From: a candidate division WOR-3 bacterium
Lineage (GTDB): Bacteria; Hydrothermota; 32-111
DNA: 64,000 nt
Assembly (NCBI GenBank): GCA_037481815.1
Contig: JBBFKX010000002.1
Span: forward strand, 1 to 64,000
Direction of reading: 5' to 3'
In this document: piece by piece, positions 10,014 through 18,516 of the stretch
How positions within the stretch are numbered: position 1 is the stretch's first letter
Layout: each line of letters opens with the position of its first letter
The notes under the pieces: model-generated
Databases searched by the model: none
Seen by the model: the letters and a program-made list of their open reading frames with translations, nothing else
What the model was told of the DNA's origin: nothing
Made by a program: the position numbers and the translations under genes

Positions 10014-10955
10014 TTACCCCCTTTTGATAAGTGTTCCCGACTCTCCTCTTACAACATCTTTTCCAAGTTCAACAGAGCCAATCAAAGCCCTTTTACCTGT
10101 GTTTTCAACAAACCTGATCATCGCTTCAATCTTAGGGCCCATCGATCCGGGCGGAAATTGTCCTTCAATAAAATATTTTCTTGCTTCAGATACTGTTAAC
10201 TCTTTGAGTTCCTGTTCGTTCACTTTTCTGAAATTGATGCAAACCCTTTTTACAGCAGTTAAAATATAAAACTCATCAGCCCCTATTTCCTCTGCAAGAA
10301 GTGCCGATGCTTTATCTTTATCGATAACAGCGTCAAGACCTTCAAGGTTTCCTTTCGAATCATAGTATACAGGAATCCCTCCACCACCTGCTGCGATAAC
10401 TATATAACCGTTTTCAAGCAAAGTTTTTATAACATCTTTTTCGACAATACCTTTTGGTTCAGGTGAAGGAACAACTCTTCTATACCCTCTTCCAACATCA
10501 TGTTTTACAACCCATCCTTTTTTCAAAAGGTTTGGGACATCCTCCTCTTTATAAAATTTTCCAACAAATTTTGAAGGATTTTTTATTGATGGGTCATTTT
10601 CATCAACAAGCACCTGAGTTATCACAACTGCAACCTGTCTATTTATTCCCTCTTTTTTTAATCTATTCATCAAAGATTGTGAAATCATATAACCTATAGA
10701 TCCCTGAGTCTCAGCATCTATAACACCAAGTGGAAGTGATGGCACCTCATTTTCAGCGATCTCATTTTTCAAAAGTTCAAAACCTGCCTGAGGACCATTA
10801 CCATGAGTTATTACAACTGAAAAGTCCTGACGGAGTAATTCGATTACTCCGTCAAGAGACATTCTTGTATTTGCAAACTGCTCGGTTATCGTTCCCTTCT
10901 GACCATCCTGAATCAGCGCGTTTCCACCTAAAGCAACAACTGCAATCTTAGTCAT
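10014..10955 (-). CDS. arcC: Carbamate kinase
   Basis: VALGGNAL, THGNGPQ, RRVVPSP, GGGGIPV, AVIDKD, GSMGPK. Confidence 0.96.
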   Translation of the reverse strand: MTKIAVVALGGNALIQDGQKGTITEQFANTRMSLDGVIELLRQDFSVVITHGNGPQAGFELLKNEIAENEVPSLPLGVIDAETQGSIGYMISQSLMNRLKKEGINRQVAVVITQVLVDENDPSIKNPSKFVGKFYKEEDVPNLLKKGWVVKHDVGRGYRRVVPSPEPKGIVEKDVIKTLLENGYIVIAAGGGGIPVYYDSKGNLEGLDAVIDKDKASALLAEEIGADEFYILTAVKRVCINFRKVNEQELKELTVSEARKYFIEGQFPPGSMGPKIEAMIRFVENTGKRALIGSVELGKDVVRGESGTLIKRG

Positions 10956-10960
10956 AATAC

Positions 10961-12286
10961 TTATTTTTTAATCTTTTTCACAAAATTTTTCAAAACATCT
11001 TCAAGATCTGGTTTTCCGATTTCCTGTAGATCATAACCAACTCTTACTGATGGCTTGTTGATCTTCACCAATCTTCCAAGGTTTATCGGTGTTGCTATAA
11101 CTATCGTTTCACATGGAATCTTGTTTATCGTTTTTTCAAGATCAGAGATCTGTTTTTTCGAATAACCCATTGCAGGAAGTATTGCGCCTGCGTCAGAGTA
11201 TTTTTCGTATGTCTCTTTTATTTCACCAACAGCATAAGGATGTGGATCTATTATCTCTTTTGCTCCAAACCTTTTTGCTGCAACAACACCTGCTCCATAT
11301 TTCATTTCGCCATGAGTGAGTGTTGGACCATCCTCAACAACAGCAACCTTTTTTCCTTTTATAAGTTCAGGTTTATCAACCGAAACTGGAGATGCTGCTT
11401 CAATTACTGTTGCTTTTGGATTTACTTTTGCGATATTTTCTCTTACGATCTCAACATTTTCAGGTTTCGCTGAATCTATTTTGTTTATAACAACAACATC
11501 TGCGAGTCGAATGTTAACACAACCAGGATAATATGTGAGTTCATGACCTGGTCTATGAGGATCAGCAACTGTTATCACAAGATCAGGTTTATAGAATGGA
11601 AAATCGTTGTTTCCACCATCCCATAGAATTATATCTGCCTCTTTTTCTGCTTGCCTAATTATATCCTCATAATCAACACCTGCATATACAACCGTTCCAT
11701 TGTTTATATGAGGTTCATATTCCTCCATCTCCTCTATAGTACAATTATGTTTTTTCAGATCCTCTATTGAAGCAAACCTCTGGACTCTCTGTTTTTCAAG
11801 ATCACCATAAGGCATGGGATGTCTTATCGCAACAAGTTTATAACCCATACCTCTTAAAATTTTTGATACAGCCCTTGTTGTCTGAGATTTACCTGAACCT
11901 GTCCTCACTGCAACTATTGATACAACTGGCTTTGATGATTTTATATATGTCTGTTCAGGTCCAAGAAGCATATAACTTGCACCAGCAGCCATCGCTTCTG
12001 CACCTTTGTTCATAACATACTGGTTGGAAATATCCGAATATGAGAACACAACAAGATCAACCTTTTTTTCCTTTATTATCTTTGTCATATCCTTTTCATC
12101 ATAAATAGGAATCCCCTTTTTATAAAGTTTTCCTGCAAGTGATGGAGGATACAATCTTCCCTCTATATCTGGAATCTGTGTAGCAGTGAAACCAACAACC
12201 TCATATTCCTCATTATTTCTAAAAAACACATTAAAATTATGGAAATCTCTTCCTGCTGCTCCTAAAATCAAAACTCTCTTTTTCAT
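10961..12286 (-). CDS. arcE: Arginine synthetase ArcE-like P-loop enzyme (often annotated as cDPG synthetase-like or GTPase)
   Basis: GAAGRDFHNFN, ATQIPDI, RTGSGKSQT, RHPMPYG, TIEEMEEYEPH, WDGGNND, EDGPTLTHG, PAMGY; directly upstream of arcC. Confidence 0.8.
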   Translation of the reverse strand: MKKRVLILGAAGRDFHNFNVFFRNNEEYEVVGFTATQIPDIEGRLYPPSLAGKLYKKGIPIYDEKDMTKIIKEKKVDLVVFSYSDISNQYVMNKGAEAMAAGASYMLLGPEQTYIKSSKPVVSIVAVRTGSGKSQTTRAVSKILRGMGYKLVAIRHPMPYGDLEKQRVQRFASIEDLKKHNCTIEEMEEYEPHINNGTVVYAGVDYEDIIRQAEKEADIILWDGGNNDFPFYKPDLVITVADPHRPGHELTYYPGCVNIRLADVVVINKIDSAKPENVEIVRENIAKVNPKATVIEAASPVSVDKPELIKGKKVAVVEDGPTLTHGEMKYGAGVVAAKRFGAKEIIDPHPYAVGEIKETYEKYSDAGAILPAMGYSKKQISDLEKTINKIPCETIVIATPINLGRLVKINKPSVRVGYDLQEIGKPDLEDVLKNFVKKIKK

Positions 12287-12386: not shown

Positions 12387-13337
12387 TCACTTTTTGATGA
12401 TCATGTTAAGGTAGGGATAGAAAAATCCTTTATCGATTTGGGGAGAGATTTTTTGTAGAAGATCAAAAAATTTTTTTTCTTTCGAAAAGGGTAAAAAAAA
12501 CTGTTTCAAATGAGAAACCACATCGATATCCTTTGCTTTTATATCCCATGCAATTTCAAGTTCATGAAAACTCATCCCTCTGCCCCTTCTTAAAAAATGT
12601 AAAAATTTTTCATCTGAGTACTCGTTATAGATTTCCCTGAAATTACTCCTCTCACTGAACTTCGCATAATCGAAAGCTATTCGATCAGGTAACCAGTTGA
12701 AGTATGGAAGTAGTGATGTATGTTCATCGAAAAACCATAGTCGGTTTGGAGTTTCGATTATCGTAAAAAAAGAACCTTTTTCAAGAAATGAAAAATATTT
12801 TTTCAAACAATCTATCCTTTCCTCATAAACCATATGTTCAAAAGATGCATAAAAAATAATCATATCAAATTTTCTATCTTTAATATTTTCAAAAACAACT
12901 GATGCATTACCCTCAATAAATTCAGCTTTTAAACCATAAATGGACATCCTTTCCTTTGCTACCGTTAAACTATCTTTATCAATATCTATACCGGTAACAG
13001 AAGCACCCTGTTCAGAGAGTGCAACAGTTGATGATCCTGTTCCACAACCAATCTCCAAAATTTTTTTATCTTTTAAATTAAAAGTTTTCGATATCCATGG
13101 TATATAATAGTATCTGTTTTCATTAAGGCGCAAATAGAGTTGTGTTTTTAAGTCATTTTCAAATGTCTTTTCAGAAAAATTACTTTTCTCCCTCCATCCT
13201 TTAAAAAAAGTATCTTCAAGTGTTTTTTGAAAATTTTTTAATTTTTCATCAGGAATTTTGATAAAGTTTTTTTTGATATTTTTAGGAACTTGCTCTTTTT
13301 GTAACTTTTTATAAACCTTATAAACAAATTTTTTCAT
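12387..13337 (-). CDS. Class I SAM-dependent methyltransferase (UbiG/FkbM-like)
   Basis: ILEIGCGTG, GIDID, FEHM, ETPNR. Confidence 0.85.
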   Translation of the reverse strand: MKKFVYKVYKKLQKEQVPKNIKKNFIKIPDEKLKNFQKTLEDTFFKGWREKSNFSEKTFENDLKTQLYLRLNENRYYYIPWISKTFNLKDKKILEIGCGTGSSTVALSEQGASVTGIDIDKDSLTVAKERMSIYGLKAEFIEGNASVVFENIKDRKFDMIIFYASFEHMVYEERIDCLKKYFSFLEKGSFFTIIETPNRLWFFDEHTSLLPYFNWLPDRIAFDYAKFSERSNFREIYNEYSDEKFLHFLRRGRGMSFHELEIAWDIKAKDIDVVSHLKQFFLPFSKEKKFFDLLQKISPQIDKGFFYPYLNMIIKK

Positions 13338-13343
13338 ATTTTT

Positions 13344-13372
13344 ATTTTAACTGATTTTTCAATTTCTTTCAA
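13344..13372 (-). promoter_or_regulatory. Promoter, leaderless geometry
   Basis: TTGAAA-17-TAAAAT, 6 nt to ATG 13337, no SD. Confidence 0.6.
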
Positions 13373-13456
13373 GAAAATATTTCCCGGGGACGGTGCTTGA
13401 CTTTTTGACATTTTTTAGAAATGTTCAATCAAAAAATCAATTAAAACTTTTTCATC

Positions 13457-13484
13457 TTGAATTGGTTTCTTTTATCCTTATACT
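13457..13484 (+). promoter_or_regulatory. Promoter, leaderless geometry
   Basis: TTGAAT-16-TATACT, 7 nt to ATG 13492, no SD. Confidence 0.6.
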
Positions 13485-13491
13485 TACTTTT

Positions 13492-14295
13492 ATGTATGAA
13501 ATTTTAAAACTTTATGCTTTTATCGTTAGAAAATTTATAAACAGAAAAAAAAATATACAAAAAATGCATTCCCACCTGAAAAAAGGATATGAAGAGTATT
13601 TAAAGTTAAAAGATAAAGAGATAATAGATTACAATTCAAAAAAATTTAAAATCATAAAAATAAAAACAAAGATTTTTACCGGTGGAGAAGACCTTTTAAA
13701 CTATATCTATGAAAACCTTAAAGATGAGATAAAAGAAAATGACATTTTAACAGTTGCAGAGTCAATTGTAGGAATAACACAGAACAGGGCTTATCGAGTG
13801 GATGAGATAAAACCATCAAAATGGGCATACTTTTTATATCCATGGGTTTCAAATGTTGATTATGGCACAGGACTTGGTATGGCAGAGACGATGGAATGCG
13901 CTATAAGAGAGGTCGGGCTGAAAAGAATCTTGAAAGCAACACTTTTTGGATTCTTTGATAGAATCAGAAAAAAGAGTGGTTCATTTTATAAAGTTGCAGG
14001 AAAAGAGGTCAAAAGTATAGATTTCAAAAAAAACCATCCTATACCTTTTAAAGGTTCAAATAATTATATAGTTCTTTCTCCAAAAGATCCTGAAAAATTT
14101 GCAAAAAATCTTTACAAAAAATTTTCAAAAAATATTTTTGCTTGTGTTGTTGATGCAAACAATGTTTCGATTGATATTCTGGGACTTTATCCTGAAAATA
14201 AAAATGTTGAAAATATAATAATGAATGTAATGAAAGGAAATCCAGCAGGACAAGATGATGAAAAAACCCCTATCATCATTATCAGAGAAATTTAA
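13492..14295 (+). CDS. Coenzyme F420-0:L-glutamate ligase (CofE)-like protein
   Basis: DILTVAESIVGITQNR, FYKVAG, VVDANN, GNPAGQDDEKTPIIIIR match the bacterial CofE-like subfamily. Start set to ATG 13492 from promoter geometry. Confidence 0.7.
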   Translation: MYEILKLYAFIVRKFINRKKNIQKMHSHLKKGYEEYLKLKDKEIIDYNSKKFKIIKIKTKIFTGGEDLLNYIYENLKDEIKENDILTVAESIVGITQNRAYRVDEIKPSKWAYFLYPWVSNVDYGTGLGMAETMECAIREVGLKRILKATLFGFFDRIRKKSGSFYKVAGKEVKSIDFKKNHPIPFKGSNNYIVLSPKDPEKFAKNLYKKFSKNIFACVVDANNVSIDILGLYPENKNVENIIMNVMKGNPAGQDDEKTPIIIIREI

Positions 14296-15592
14296 AACAA
14301 ACTTTTTTAAATCGATATTTTCTACATCTCTACTTATAGGGATTTCAAGATTATCCGGGTTTTTCAGAGAGGTTGTCTACTCCGCTTTTATCGGGACATC
14401 CAGAATAATGGATGGTTTTCTGGTAGCGTTTCTTCTCCCAAACTTCTTTAGAAGAATACTTGGAGAAAGAGCAGCGGAATCAGTATTTTTACCAATGTAT
14501 ATCAGAGAAAGAGAAAAGAGTCAAAAAGATGCTGATTCTTATATGTCTAATCTTTTTACAATAATTTCCCTTATACTGATAATAGGAACAATCTTTTTAT
14601 ATCTGATCTCACCGATACTATTGAAAATTTTAGCACCCGGGTTTGACAGAGAAACTTATGAAATTTCATTGAAAATAACTTATCTTATTTTACCCTATAT
14701 GTTTTTTATAGGTATATACTCTTTTCTTGGTTCACTCCTTGAATCTTTCAAAAAGTTTTCACTCTACAACATATCTCCACTACTTTTTAATCTCGTGATG
14801 ATAATAGCGATTCCATTATTTTACAAAAAAAATCCAATACTCACAATTTCGTTTTCAGTTCTTGTTGGAGTTATATTACAAACTTTAATACTTTTTTTTG
14901 GATTAAAAAAACTACCTGTTAAATACAATTTCACTATATCCTTCAAAGATGAAAGGATAAAAAAAAGTTTTAAACTTTTGATTCCAATAATAGGAGCCAG
15001 TTTTATAGAAAAAAGTGCAATATATGTTGATAGAATAATGGGTTCGATTCTTGGAACAGGAGCAATTTCCGCTTTACATTTCTCGTTCTTATTAACAGAC
15101 CTTCCCTTTGCTGTTTTTTCAATCGCCATTTCAAAAGTAATACATCCTTACATTTCAGAGAAAGAAAACTATTCTTCAAAAGAAAATTTTAAAAAGTTCA
15201 TCAGAAGAGGGGTCTTCTTAAACATTGCGATTCTTTTACCGATAAGTTTATTCTTCATAATCTTTGCTGAAAAGATAATAAGCATAATCTATCAAAGAGG
15301 TGCTTTCAATGTTCAATCTGTTAAAATGACATATGTTCCTTTCATCTATTATACACTCGGACTGATTCCAATGGGAATAATACAGGTTTTTGCAAAAGGT
15401 TTTTATTCACTTTTAAACACAAAAACACCTTTATATGTCTCAGGTGTTTCGATGGTTTTGAACATACTTTTGAACATAATTCTTCTGCCAAAATTTAACC
15501 TTGCAGGTATCGCTTTTGCCACTTCACTTTCATACTGGTTCCATGCAACCTATCTTTATTTTAAACTGAAAAAAAATCTGGAAAGAATATGA
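14255..15592 (+). CDS. murJ: MurJ/MviN-family MOP flippase, 12-TM variant
   Basis: SRLSGFFRE, DGFLVAFLLPNFFRRILGE, LAPGF, RGAF, GFYSLLNTKTP, GIAFATS. Confidence 0.85.
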   Translation: MMKKPLSSLSEKFKTNFFKSIFSTSLLIGISRLSGFFREVVYSAFIGTSRIMDGFLVAFLLPNFFRRILGERAAESVFLPMYIREREKSQKDADSYMSNLFTIISLILIIGTIFLYLISPILLKILAPGFDRETYEISLKITYLILPYMFFIGIYSFLGSLLESFKKFSLYNISPLLFNLVMIIAIPLFYKKNPILTISFSVLVGVILQTLILFFGLKKLPVKYNFTISFKDERIKKSFKLLIPIIGASFIEKSAIYVDRIMGSILGTGAISALHFSFLLTDLPFAVFSIAISKVIHPYISEKENYSSKENFKKFIRRGVFLNIAILLPISLFFIIFAEKIISIIYQRGAFNVQSVKMTYVPFIYYTLGLIPMGIIQVFAKGFYSLLNTKTPLYVSGVSMVLNILLNIILLPKFNLAGIAFATSLSYWFHATYLYFKLKKNLERI

Positions 15593-15963
15593 AGATATCA
15601 AATGGGATAGATATCATAGAAGTTAAAAGGATAAAAGATAAATTTGAAAAAAATCAAAAATTCAAAGAGAAAATTTTTACTGAAAACGAATTGAACCAAG
15701 TGAAGGGGCTTGAAATAGAATATATAGTTCTTGCAGGAAAATGGGCTTCAAAAGAAGCATTTTCAAAAGCACTTGGAACAGGTATAGGAAAAGAACTTGA
15801 TTGGAAAGATATGGAGATCATAAACGATATCAATGGAAAACCTGAAATAAGAATTTCTCAGAATCTTATCAAAAAATATAAAATAGATCAGATCTCTCTT
15901 TCGATTTCACATATAAAAGATTATGCCATAGCATCAGTTTTTATTCTTTTCAACCAAACTTGA
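15589..15963 (+). CDS. acpS: Holo-[acyl-carrier-protein] synthase
   Basis: GIDIIEV, LAGKWASKEAFSKALGTG, GKP, SISH. Confidence 0.93.
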   Translation: MKISNGIDIIEVKRIKDKFEKNQKFKEKIFTENELNQVKGLEIEYIVLAGKWASKEAFSKALGTGIGKELDWKDMEIINDINGKPEIRISQNLIKKYKIDQISLSISHIKDYAIASVFILFNQT

Positions 15964-18516
15964 AATCTTTTTCTTGATACCCTTTATTGAAAGGTTATCA
16001 TCCTTTTCAACTTTTGAAATTTTTATGAGATATTCTTTATACATTTTAATCAAGTATTTAAAATTTTCATTTGAAATCAATTTATAAATAGTAATAAATT
16101 CCTCATAATTATTCAAATCACCTAAAAGTTGCATATATCTTAAAGTTGAAGAAAATTCTGATAGATAATTCGATATCGATTGACGAACAACTCTATCCTC
16201 TTCCTTATCAATCTTTTTCACAAAAAGTTCAACAAGATCAAACTTATGTTTTCTAAAACATTCAAGAATCTCAACTTTTAATCTGTAACTTCCTTTATCG
16301 TAATGCTCCAGTAAAAATGTTAAATCAACTGTTGTATCAAGATTTCCAATAGCAAAAACTGAAAGTTCTTTGATTTTTTGATCTGGATAAGAAAGGTGTT
16401 CTTTCAATGTCTGGAATGATCTATTGTATTTCGCCTGTGAAAGTATATAGATTATATTTTTTTTCGTATTTTTATCTTCGCTCCTGTTCAACTTTTCGAT
16501 CAATTTGTCTTTTAAAATATCTGAACAGTTTTTGAACAGATAGTTCATCGCTTCAAGTTCAAGTCCATCATCGGTTGAGATTTTTTTATCAAGAACATAT
16601 TTTACAGATTCATTTTCCCGTTTTAAAAGTATTTTTCTTGCTTTTTCAACTTTATAAAAGTTATCCCTTACAGCCCACTCTGATGAGATTTCAAATATTT
16701 TTTCTATCGGTAAATCTTCTGAAACAAAAAATGTATCCGGTTCTTTCTTTTCTTCAACAAATCCAACATCAACACCAAATCCATAATATTTGTTTATCCA
16801 ACTGATTGAATCTTTGTTTGATTGCTTTGAATAAAAATCTTTCCCTTCACAGTCAATAAAAAGTCCAATACCTGAAAATCCTCTCGATTCGTTCACATCT
16901 CCATTTGAAAGTTTTTCACTTGAAAAATAGGAGTCGTTCCCTTTTTTATCAAGAAATATTCCAACAGAGTTGTTTAAGCCAACACCCTGACCACCTGAAA
17001 CGGTATAGTTGTCATCACCCTTCTGATCGATCAAAACCCCATAAGCAAAATCATGTCCTTCTCCTTGCGATGGACCATACCTTGAAAAGAACATATCATC
17101 ACCTGAATAATCGAACAAACCACCCACAGAAAGATGAATCCCGGATCCCTGTGCATACTGTGCTGAAGAGTAATAATCGTTTCCAGAAAAATCGAAAAGA
17201 AGTCCAACACTGTGCCAGTAACTTCCTCCCTGCCCAAAAACAGAGGAGAAATAGTTATCGTTCCCTTTATAATCAACAAGAATTCCGACTCCACCACATG
17301 TTCTTGGTCTTAAACCAAATCCAAAGCCCTGACTCATCGAAAGATAATCGTTTTCAAGTAAAGGTGCATGCTTGAAAAATGTTCCTGATATATAATGGTC
17401 GTCACCTGAAGAATCAACAAGTATACCAGTACCTTTAACAAAACCAAATCCCTGTGAAAATGCAGAAGAATAATATATATCGTTTCCAGATTTATCGATC
17501 AACTCTCCCCTTCCAAAGTAGCCCGCACCCTGCGTGAAAAATCCTCCTGAATAAAAATCGTTTCCACCACCATCATAAAGTTGTGAAAATCCTATAAAAG
17601 CTGCCCCCTGTGAAAAGTTGTATGTTTTATAAAAATCGTTACCATTAAGATCGAACAAAAAATTGACACCGTTTATTGCACCACAGGAAACCTTAAAACT
17701 GTCTGTTGAAATATACTGGTCATCTCCATCAAAATCTATAATAAACCTGATTCTTTTTGTATAAGGATAAACAACCCCACAACTGTTAAAATATTTATCA
17801 TCACCACCAAGATCAATTATAAAATCATATTCATCATAATATGAGTTTGAATAAAAATCTCCAATAAACAATCTCCCATTTGAAAGAAAAGTATCAACAG
17901 GATAGAGTTGTCCATTAACAAAAAGTTCGATTATTCTTTTTTTAAAATTTTCAGTTAAAATTTTTACCTTTTCAAAGTCAGAATTTACCAGATAAGAATA
18001 ATTTACAAGGGAATCAACCTTTAAAGAATTAGTATCAATATTTATACCAAGAGATTGCTCTATCCTTCCTTTATATAGATAAGACAATGATTCTTCAAAA
18101 AAAAGTAATGGAATAATCTGTAAAATATCTCGACTTTTTTCAACATTTATTTTAATTTTTTCTCTCAAAATCTGATTGACATCTCCGGTATATTTTTCAA
18201 CAAGTTCAAAATGGTTTGTGATTTTTTCATAATCATTTTTTTCATAAATTTTATCGTGCAAATTTACAATCGAATCCAAATAAAACTCTCTTTTCTTAAC
18301 AAGTAGCAATGGATTGTTTAAAAGTGTATCTGCAAATGGCATTTTAAAGGAATCGTTAACAGAAAAATCTTTTTTAAAATTGAAATCTTTTTCCTCTATA
18401 CCAAAATTTCTACCTTTTTCAATTATCATCTTGTAATCCTCTTCTGGAACTTTTGCAAAAATTGTTGAAAAACAAAAAAGTAAAAATAAAAACTTTTTTA
18501 AACTTCCAAAAAACAT
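15934..18516 (-). CDS. Exported protein with 12 DxxGxDxY repeats and C-terminal HEAT-like helical repeats
   Basis: Signal peptide; repeats such as IIDLGGDDKY, LFDLNGNDFY, LIDKSGNDIY, LVDYKGNDNY separated by (S/G)QGxG; C-terminal HEAT-like segments (IKELSVFAIGNL). Confidence 0.7.
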   Translation of the reverse strand: MFFGSLKKFLFLLFCFSTIFAKVPEEDYKMIIEKGRNFGIEEKDFNFKKDFSVNDSFKMPFADTLLNNPLLLVKKREFYLDSIVNLHDKIYEKNDYEKITNHFELVEKYTGDVNQILREKIKINVEKSRDILQIIPLLFFEESLSYLYKGRIEQSLGINIDTNSLKVDSLVNYSYLVNSDFEKVKILTENFKKRIIELFVNGQLYPVDTFLSNGRLFIGDFYSNSYYDEYDFIIDLGGDDKYFNSCGVVYPYTKRIRFIIDFDGDDQYISTDSFKVSCGAINGVNFLFDLNGNDFYKTYNFSQGAAFIGFSQLYDGGGNDFYSGGFFTQGAGYFGRGELIDKSGNDIYYSSAFSQGFGFVKGTGILVDSSGDDHYISGTFFKHAPLLENDYLSMSQGFGFGLRPRTCGGVGILVDYKGNDNYFSSVFGQGGSYWHSVGLLFDFSGNDYYSSAQYAQGSGIHLSVGGLFDYSGDDMFFSRYGPSQGEGHDFAYGVLIDQKGDDNYTVSGGQGVGLNNSVGIFLDKKGNDSYFSSEKLSNGDVNESRGFSGIGLFIDCEGKDFYSKQSNKDSISWINKYYGFGVDVGFVEEKKEPDTFFVSEDLPIEKIFEISSEWAVRDNFYKVEKARKILLKRENESVKYVLDKKISTDDGLELEAMNYLFKNCSDILKDKLIEKLNRSEDKNTKKNIIYILSQAKYNRSFQTLKEHLSYPDQKIKELSVFAIGNLDTTVDLTFLLEHYDKGSYRLKVEILECFRKHKFDLVELFVKKIDKEEDRVVRQSISNYLSEFSSTLRYMQLLGDLNNYEEFITIYKLISNENFKYLIKMYKEYLIKISKVEKDDNLSIKGIKKKISSLVEKNKN

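Follow-up and report, generated by a model that had tools for sequence, protein, structure and literature searches.

The window analysed here, 64,000 nucleotides of contig 2 from the assembly of a candidate division WOR-3 bacterium (GCA_037481815.1; 1.58 Mb, 95% complete), contains a three-gene unit encoding a CofE-like ligase, the flippase homologue MurJ and the holo-acyl carrier protein synthase AcpS. Among the novelties of this locus, the most solid and the most amenable to testing is the MurJ, which ends after transmembrane helix 12 (TM12), consists of the MOP core without TM13 and TM14, and represents a clade of natural 12-TM MurJ proteins. Truncation of this protein, loss of the third arginine of its cationic triad and adjacency to the ligase gene are, as judged from sequence comparison across the phylum, three separate events. 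The ligase is a CofE-fold enzyme but not CofE, and we tentatively propose that it modifies an envelope precursor before export.

Results

The window MurJ lacks TM13, TM14 and one arginine of the cationic triad

The window protein passes the MurJ model TIGR01695 (315.6 bits versus a cut-off of 235.55) with coverage of profile positions 3-431 of 506, and its phmmer alignment to Escherichia coli MurJ reaches about residue 433. The AlphaFold2 model (predicted local distance difference test score, pLDDT, of 88; predicted template modelling score of 0.83) aligns over residues 16-444 with MurJ residues 2-436 of 510 (Z of 38-40, root mean square deviation of 2.4 Å for 425 residues), and TM1-12 superpose in the same way on the MurJ structures of E. 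coli (PDB 6cc4/7wag) and Thermosipho africanus (5t77/6nc6-9). Since the model alignment stops at MurJ residue 436 of 510, TM13 and TM14 are without counterpart, which upholds a reading made earlier from the sequence alone (the sequence-only reading) that placed the end of the protein directly after TM12. The helices concerned form the groove in which the undecaprenyl tail is proposed to lie. That MurJ might be split, with a separate gene for TM13-14, was considered and rejected: the tail of a full-length MurJ from another WOR-3 family (f2) found at best a match with an E value of 0.086 that was interrupted by stops, and a hidden Markov model (HMM) of the tail, run at maximum sensitivity against all open stretches of the genome of at least 60 amino acids, gave a best E value of 0.18.

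The triad R18-R24-R270 of E. coli MurJ is described as essential and as the proposed holder of the lipid II diphosphate (PMC13661225). In the phmmer alignment against PDB the window segment HFSFLLTDLP pairs with E. coli YYADRLMEFP, so that D269 is replaced by F278 and R270 by L279, leaving the triad incomplete with R32 and R38 present and leucine at the third position. The equivalents of R18, R24, D39 and R52 are R32, R38, D53 and R66; the sequence-only reading had held these to be kept, correctly, and they are invariant in 21 aligned WOR-3 MurJ sequences. It had also described D269/R270 as a replaced pair. Both substitutions stand in the alignment, but the position of D269 is F or Y in all 23 aligned WOR-3 MurJ rows, including those that keep R270, and D269/R270 is therefore no conserved pair in this phylum. 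No clear relocated positive charge was found that would compensate for L279 when the arginine-lacking genera (g1 and g5, see below) were compared with their arginine-keeping relatives (g2-g4), the gains of lysine or arginine at positions 91, 191, 234, 317 and 437 looking like loop positions.

The short MurJ is confined to one family, and arginine loss to two of its genera

Distribution was followed through a survey of 272 genomes of the phylum, in which families are designated f and the five genera of the window's own family, f1, are designated g1-g5. A short MurJ of 437-446 amino acids, or fragments of one, is present in all 14 f1 genomes, across all five genera, with no other strong MurJ match in any of them. 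A search of 5.8 billion protein clusters returned the same division: among the matches listed, all 23 with at least 51% identity are 394-445 amino acids long, while the other 97, with at most 36% identity, are 486-568 amino acids long, with a drop in match score from 473 bits to 236 once the protein's own clade is left. On this split of lengths among the matches listed, every one of which has at least 486 amino acids outside the clade, the short form is confined to the clade of the query.

In genera g2-g4 the truncated MurJ keeps the arginine (YFAFRLIDLP), and only in g1 and g5 is it replaced by leucine (HFSFLLTDLP). The MurJ proteins encoded near ligase genes in families f2, f3 and f32 have 501-554 amino acids where the start is clear, with a tail of 80-93 amino acids after TM12, and they retain the arginine as well (SYAFRL, SYAYRI), which also occupies this position in the other WOR-3 families examined. 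Because the MurJ of f2, f3 and f32 is full-length with the arginine, and that of f1 g2-g4 is truncated yet has it, truncation, arginine loss and ligase adjacency separate into three events; TM13-14 would have been lost once, at the base of f1, and the R270 equivalent later, in two genera, neither loss appearing to be tied to the ligase. The association that the sequence-only reading had anticipated, in which adjacency of the ligase gene goes together with loss of R270 and TM13-14, fails on this set. As a target for antibiotics MurJ is essential, and TM13-14 and the R18-R24-R270 triad are central to present models of its action. A whole family that apparently lives with a MurJ lacking TM13-14, and in two genera lacking the third arginine too, constitutes a natural experiment on which parts are dispensable. 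A literature search on MurJ, in such parts of the sources as were available, returned no report of a natural 12-TM form.

The 12-TM protein is the only MurJ of the genome

Genome-wide, murJ of the window is the only MurJ-type gene, with one strong match; there is neither a second MurJ nor an Amj, a check that the sequence-only reading had called for. One further MOP protein scores 34 bits against Pfam's MurJ model and has only a weak TuaB-like NCBIfam match, and its gene lies beside a glycosyltransferase-like gene. The division and cell wall cluster is complete (mraZ, rsmH, ftsI, murE of the meso-diaminopimelate type, murF, mraY, murD, ftsW, murG, murC, murB, ftsA, ftsZ) and includes all four Mur_ligase_M matches of the genome, none of which is MurT. 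Since it is the only MurJ-type protein beside a complete peptidoglycan pathway, the 12-TM MurJ is most likely the lipid II flippase of this organism. Operation with the MOP core alone is plausible by analogy with Wzx, as WzxE, a flippase for a different undecaprenyl-linked glycan, has 12 TMs and lacks the two additional helices (PMC11706664). The window protein superposes on WzxE (PDB 9g9n) with a Z of 33.6 over 405 residues; identity is only 10%, however, and by sequence the window protein is a MurJ, the Wzx/TuaB-like gene of the genome being a separate one.

The ligase has the fold of CofE and belongs to a family of its own

The CofE fold of the ligase is confirmed by its predicted structure: the AlphaFold2 model (pLDDT of 93.9) has 2phn_A as top Foldseek match (E of 4.4e-9, template modelling scores of 0.54/0.58), and the next, unrelated match follows at an E of 0.48. 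At sequence level, Pfam PF01996 (F420_ligase) scores 50.2 bits against a gathering cut-off of 25 through residues 90-146 only, which correspond to profile positions 2-61 of 218, and a phmmer search against PDB gave chance matches only (E of at least 0.19, methyl-coenzyme M reductase beta). The nucleotide-site segment and a D-x-N motif align with CofE and with FbiB's N-terminal domain (F420-0:L-glutamate ligase; PDB 2phn, 2g9i, 7uld), whereas overall identity is about 15% and the scores to the CofE equivalogs TIGR01916 and NF009809 are 24.1 bits versus 180.65 and 27.1 versus 274.

Searched exhaustively, 1.84 billion cluster representatives yielded 488 relatives at E of at most 0.001 and 253 at E of at most 1e-10. 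Forty stand-alone members have a mean column identity of 31%, with 8 invariant and 15 near-invariant columns that make up a motif set of their own. A profile made from these forty finds CofE with an E of 3.6e-5, with the N-terminal segment aligned and D-A-N matched to D-T-N, and covers CofE residues 15-67 and about 121-155 only; the F420 head-group pocket of Archaeoglobus fulgidus CofE is given in PMC10861534 as F92, G153-C155 and R234. Distant homologues fall, by the coarse taxonomy of the ESM Atlas, in Cloacimonadota, Bacillota and Chloroflexota. Searches of the 95%-complete genome for F420 partners returned no match for cofD, a best score of 46.7 bits versus 374 for cofH and 19 versus 105 for cofC, extending to the genome what the sequence-only reading had noted for the window, namely that other F420 genes are missing; no F420 pathway uses the ligase. 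With equivalog scores far below cut-off, cofD missing and cofH and cofC below cut-off, the enzyme is not CofE, and the very large bacterial family to which it belongs carries the database label of F420 ligase although carriers such as the window genome have no F420 pathway. From the mechanism of CofE (PMC10861534, PMC8498797), it is probably a carboxylate-amine ligase dependent on a nucleoside triphosphate, the acyl-phosphate ligase chemistry being presumably shared.

Both kinds of ligase can co-exist side by side, since at locus L132 (1-1652) the gene immediately after one of the non-F420 subfamily has an F420_ligase score of 126 bits over profile positions 13-217 of 218.

Another bacterial homologue of CofE put to other use where F420 is missing is FolC2 (CT611), which replaces FolC in Chlamydia and complements an E. 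coli folC mutant (PMC1971073), and the window genome, with four Mur-type ligases and no FolC above cut-off, could be read as a further case in which a FolC2-type folylpolyglutamate/dihydrofolate synthase stands in for FolC. The phylum scan largely refutes such a replacement, which we regard as highly improbable: FolC exceeds its cut-off in 256 of the 272 genomes, among them all five congeneric genomes and almost every genome with the CofE-like gene, so that canonical FolC and the window-type ligase co-exist across the phylum, and no folate gene occurs among the 67 WOR-3 or 100 metagenome neighbours scanned (see below). As FolC is found in all five same-genus genomes and almost all ligase carriers, with the window genome and a few other carriers lacking it, an assembly gap probably accounts for the lack of folC in the window genome, which is 95% complete.

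The ligase gene recurs beside murJ in the phylum

Of the 272 genomes, 126 carry the ligase gene, and in most families it is all-or-none. Among 52 loci fetched, covering nearly all carrier genera, murJ lies within the fetched stretch in 22, in three arrangements. In f1 the order ligase gene, murJ, acpS with overlapping genes holds in 5 of 5 genera, and acpS comes after murJ wherever an f1 contig extends far enough. The order in f2 and f3 is murJ-scpB-cofE-like-rluB, which puts murJ one gene away from the ligase gene, and in 14 of the 15 f32 genera murJ and the ligase gene are direct neighbours in divergent orientation. A maximum-likelihood tree of 53 ligase sequences resolves each arrangement as one clade, and families without adjacency separate the three. 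Two direct adjacencies among about 15 family-level lineages compare with about 0.02 expected, on a rough estimate that takes 1,500-2,000 genes per genome. Adjacency of ligase gene and murJ is conserved beyond chance, as the sequence-only reading had required of a functional pair, in all five f1 genera and, in other arrangements that are adjacent or have one gene between, in two further clades. Other WOR-3 neighbours, from a scan of the 67 nearest of 122 listed, include genes for PBP1a, PAP2, glycosyltransferases, exbBD and ABC exporters, in families where murJ lies outside the fetched stretch.

Envelope genes and fusions in the wider ligase family

The metagenome sample comprised 80 loci of one related subclade (50-87% identity to P0024), 74 of which have a callable ligase open reading frame (ORF). 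Of 131 immediate neighbours 100 were scanned, 31 short ORFs and near-duplicate loci having been dropped before results, and 17 of the 100 carry an envelope-type Pfam domain (Lgt 5, PAP2 4, PBP1a 3, and Amidase_3, VanW, M23, sortase and Wzy 1 each). The control, the first 150 of 189 genes at least three positions away in the same loci, contains 14. A recurrent link between ligase and envelope is present in these data and is weak.

Among the best 150 homologues, 72 longer than 330 amino acids were scanned for fusions. The commonest partner is an AsnB-type amidotransferase (19), followed by TPR repeats (6), Amidase_3 (4) and one full Mur ligase; single fusions involve PlsY, a CDP-alcohol phosphatidyltransferase, an M20 peptidase, an adenylate kinase, GNAT, HD_4 and AhpC. 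None of the 72 contains a MurJ domain. A word-based search, which is weak evidence in this respect, found no fused form of the window ligase longer than 469 amino acids.

Discussion

What the ligase does beside MurJ

The explanation that we favour, tentatively and at somewhat less than even probability, is a lineage-specific operon in which the 12-TM MurJ flips lipid II and the ligase acts earlier in the same pathway on an envelope precursor. The ligase would activate a carboxylate with a nucleoside triphosphate and join it to an amine, as CofE does; the molecule acted on would be an envelope precursor in the cytoplasm or the inner leaflet, with a stem-peptide carboxylate of peptidoglycan as the most plausible target, and the link to MurJ would be one of modification followed by export rather than of a reshaped flippase binding site. 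Enzymatic modification of stem-peptide carboxylates in the cytoplasm, ahead of export, is familiar from the MurT/GatD and AsnB/LtsA-type peptidoglycan amidation systems. AsnB-type domains are also the most frequent fusion partner noted above, but the folds of the known systems are unrelated to that of the CofE-like ligase, and MurT is missing from the window genome. The repeated placement at the side of murJ is circumstantial support for modification of a wall precursor and a lead towards the function of the ligase.

Several observations weigh against this explanation. In 11 WOR-3 families the ligase gene lies away from murJ, with scpB/rluB or, in three families, lipB, lipA or gcvH among its neighbours, and this recurrent association with lipoylation and glycine cleavage does not fit a cell-wall role. 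The arrangement of f2 and f3 may be incidental, because scpB separates the two genes there and scpB-cofE occurs in f6 with no murJ. In the metagenome sample murJ occurs within two genes of the ligase gene in 0 of 74 loci, and the envelope enrichment has an odds ratio of 2.0 with a one-sided p of 0.055, from loci that are not independent and categories sorted after the names had been seen. We know of no substrate, nucleotide or amine for any member of the family. On the side of the flippase, high-throughput mutagenesis of E. coli MurJ found premature stops between TM12 and TM13 not to be tolerated (bioRxiv 10.1101/260596), and flipping of lipid II by a 12-TM form is a prediction.

The same varied surroundings lend themselves to an account in which the ligase is unrelated to the cell wall and acts on a soluble metabolite, a cofactor or a protein (by glutamylation, for example), proximity to murJ reflecting genome compaction and inherited gene order. 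We consider this account a serious contender and place it second. Its neighbours range over scpA/scpB/rluB, lipB/lipA/gcvH, AIR-synthase-like genes, S-adenosylmethionine decarboxylase, and tRNA and ribosome genes; the roughly two-fold envelope enrichment is borderline, the AsnB-type fusion partner is not wall-specific, and the characterised enzymes known to us, CofE/FbiB and FolC2, act on cofactors (PMC1971073, PMC10861534). The placement of murJ next to or near the ligase gene, with differing gene orders, in two or three separate clades argues in the other direction, given how few direct adjacencies are expected, as do the fusions to Amidase_3 and to a Mur ligase. An altogether different partition of roles, in which the 12-TM protein serves the export of a different lipid-linked glycan and an unrecognised protein flips lipid II, would accommodate both the E. 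coli intolerance of stops before TM13 and the essentiality of R270 there, together with the strong divergence of the protein from all other MurJ sequences. It appears unlikely, since the MurJ equivalog cut-off is passed, R18, R24, D39 and R52 are kept, the genome, whose wall pathway is complete and which lacks Amj, contains no other gene of MurJ type, and all 14 f1 genomes carry the short form and no other strong match.

The sequence-only reading had gone further in coupling the two proteins, proposing that the ligase neutralises a carboxylate of lipid II, such as the alpha-carboxylate of D-Glu, and that MurJ shed R270 and TM13-14 in adaptation to the altered substrate. Both features do meet in one translationally coupled operon in the window, and the f1 forms of both proteins have diverged strongly (ligase branch length of 1.78 on the tree; the drop in MurJ scores given above), but the branch lengths of f1 are inflated by a low G+C content of about 30% and a skewed amino-acid make-up. 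MurJ encoded next to the ligase gene (f32) or one gene away (f2, f3) keeps R270 and TM13-14, and g2-g4 are truncated with the arginine in place; the odd features of MurJ do not track the ligase, and the proposed adaptation is not borne out. Lipid II of Staphylococcus aureus carries amidated D-Glu. The MurJ of that species is reported to have K302 as its equivalent of R270 (PMC13661225), and the same text assigns R270 to the diphosphate of lipid II, which leaves no support for the contact with D-Glu that the adaptation presupposed. We judge an adaptive coupling of this kind to be very unlikely.

A possible physical unit in f1

Within f1 the ligase carries an N-terminal extension of about 30 amino acids with the pattern ILKLYA.FVRKFINK.K, a basic amphipathic helix found in all five f1 genera and in no other WOR-3 family examined; the model places helices at residues 2-16 and 27-39, with a pLDDT of 89-96 for the block. 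Gene overlap, ligase extension and MurJ truncation coincide on this one branch, and as a single lineage the coincidence is beyond statistical test. It could mean that ligase and MurJ form one physical machine in f1, the helix anchoring the ligase on the truncated MurJ at the membrane, perhaps at the former site of TM13-14, and the modified precursor passing straight to a flippase that would need neither the tail groove nor, in two genera, the third arginine. We find this doubtful. A prediction of the complex of MurJ and the CofE-like ligase (score 0.00, mark 0.32) weighs neither for nor against binding.

Layout of the locus

The 41-bp overlap of the ligase gene with murJ in one apparent operon, described in the sequence-only reading, is borne out by the ORF coordinates (Table 1). 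The start of the ligase gene at its ATG follows homologue usage, 11 of 21 matches having exactly 267 amino acids; the frame is open further upstream to a GTG at 13393, which would add a hydrophobic VSFILILTF found in the three closest genomes only, the other members of the family lacking it. An AGGA lies 6-9 nucleotides upstream of the murJ ATG, and past 14255/14258 there is no further in-frame murJ start. The murJ stop overlaps the acpS ATG (ATGA). A promoter-like site at 13457-13484 (+) is a consensus match only, and the promoter and terminator scan of the locus gave no decisive signal.

Table 1. Coordinates of the features of the three-gene unit and its upstream boundary (positions in the window)
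Feature	Position	Strand	Basis
Methyltransferase gene, divergent, upstream boundary of the unit	12387..13337	-	ORF call
Intergenic region, likely promoter region of the three-gene unit	13338..13491	.	Lies between the divergent methyltransferase gene and the cofE-like gene
CofE-fold protein, 267 amino acids, F420-independent subfamily	13492..14295	+	ORF, Pfam, NCBIfam, model, homologues
N-terminal extension of the CofE-like protein, about 30 amino acids	13492..13581	+	HMM alignment offsets, 53 WOR-3 CofE-like ORFs
Overlap of cofE-like 3' end and murJ 5' end, 41 bp	14255..14295	+	ORF coordinates
MurJ, 445 amino acids, 12 TM helices (MOP core only, without TM13-14)	14255..15592	+	TIGR01695, phmmer, AlphaFold2 model
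L279 codon, position equivalent to E. coli MurJ R270	15089..15091	+	Alignment
acpS (holo-acyl carrier protein synthase), 124 amino acids, third gene	15589..15963	+	TIGR00516, 111 bits versus cut-off of 59.8

The downstream boundary of the unit is an 860-amino-acid gene (15934-18516, -) that lies convergent to acpS, with 30 bp shared between the two. Its product contains many G-x-D-x-Y-like repeats, has only a sub-threshold HEAT_2 match and belongs to no NCBIfam family, and the gene stands at the same place in loci L004 and L005. Beyond the upstream boundary, at 10014-12286 (-), a carbamate-kinase-like gene is followed by one for a 441-amino-acid protein with a weak match to CobW/HypB-type GTPases, a pair kept in L005.

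Settings of the CofE-like gene at other loci were recorded in passing. It is directly flanked by lipA-lipB, gcvP-gcvH or a divergent lipB at L052 (5354-6717), L053 (4354-5402) and L062 (5998-7362), loci from three other WOR-3 families, and it is contained in a scpA/scpB-rluB chromosome-segregation cluster at L040 (5400-6675), L042 (5989-7172), L043 (5965-7234) and the metagenome locus L110 (3560-5626). At the metagenome loci L093 (5708-6085) and L100 (3821-4198) a gene for S-adenosylmethionine decarboxylase, an enzyme of polyamine synthesis, lies directly downstream of it.

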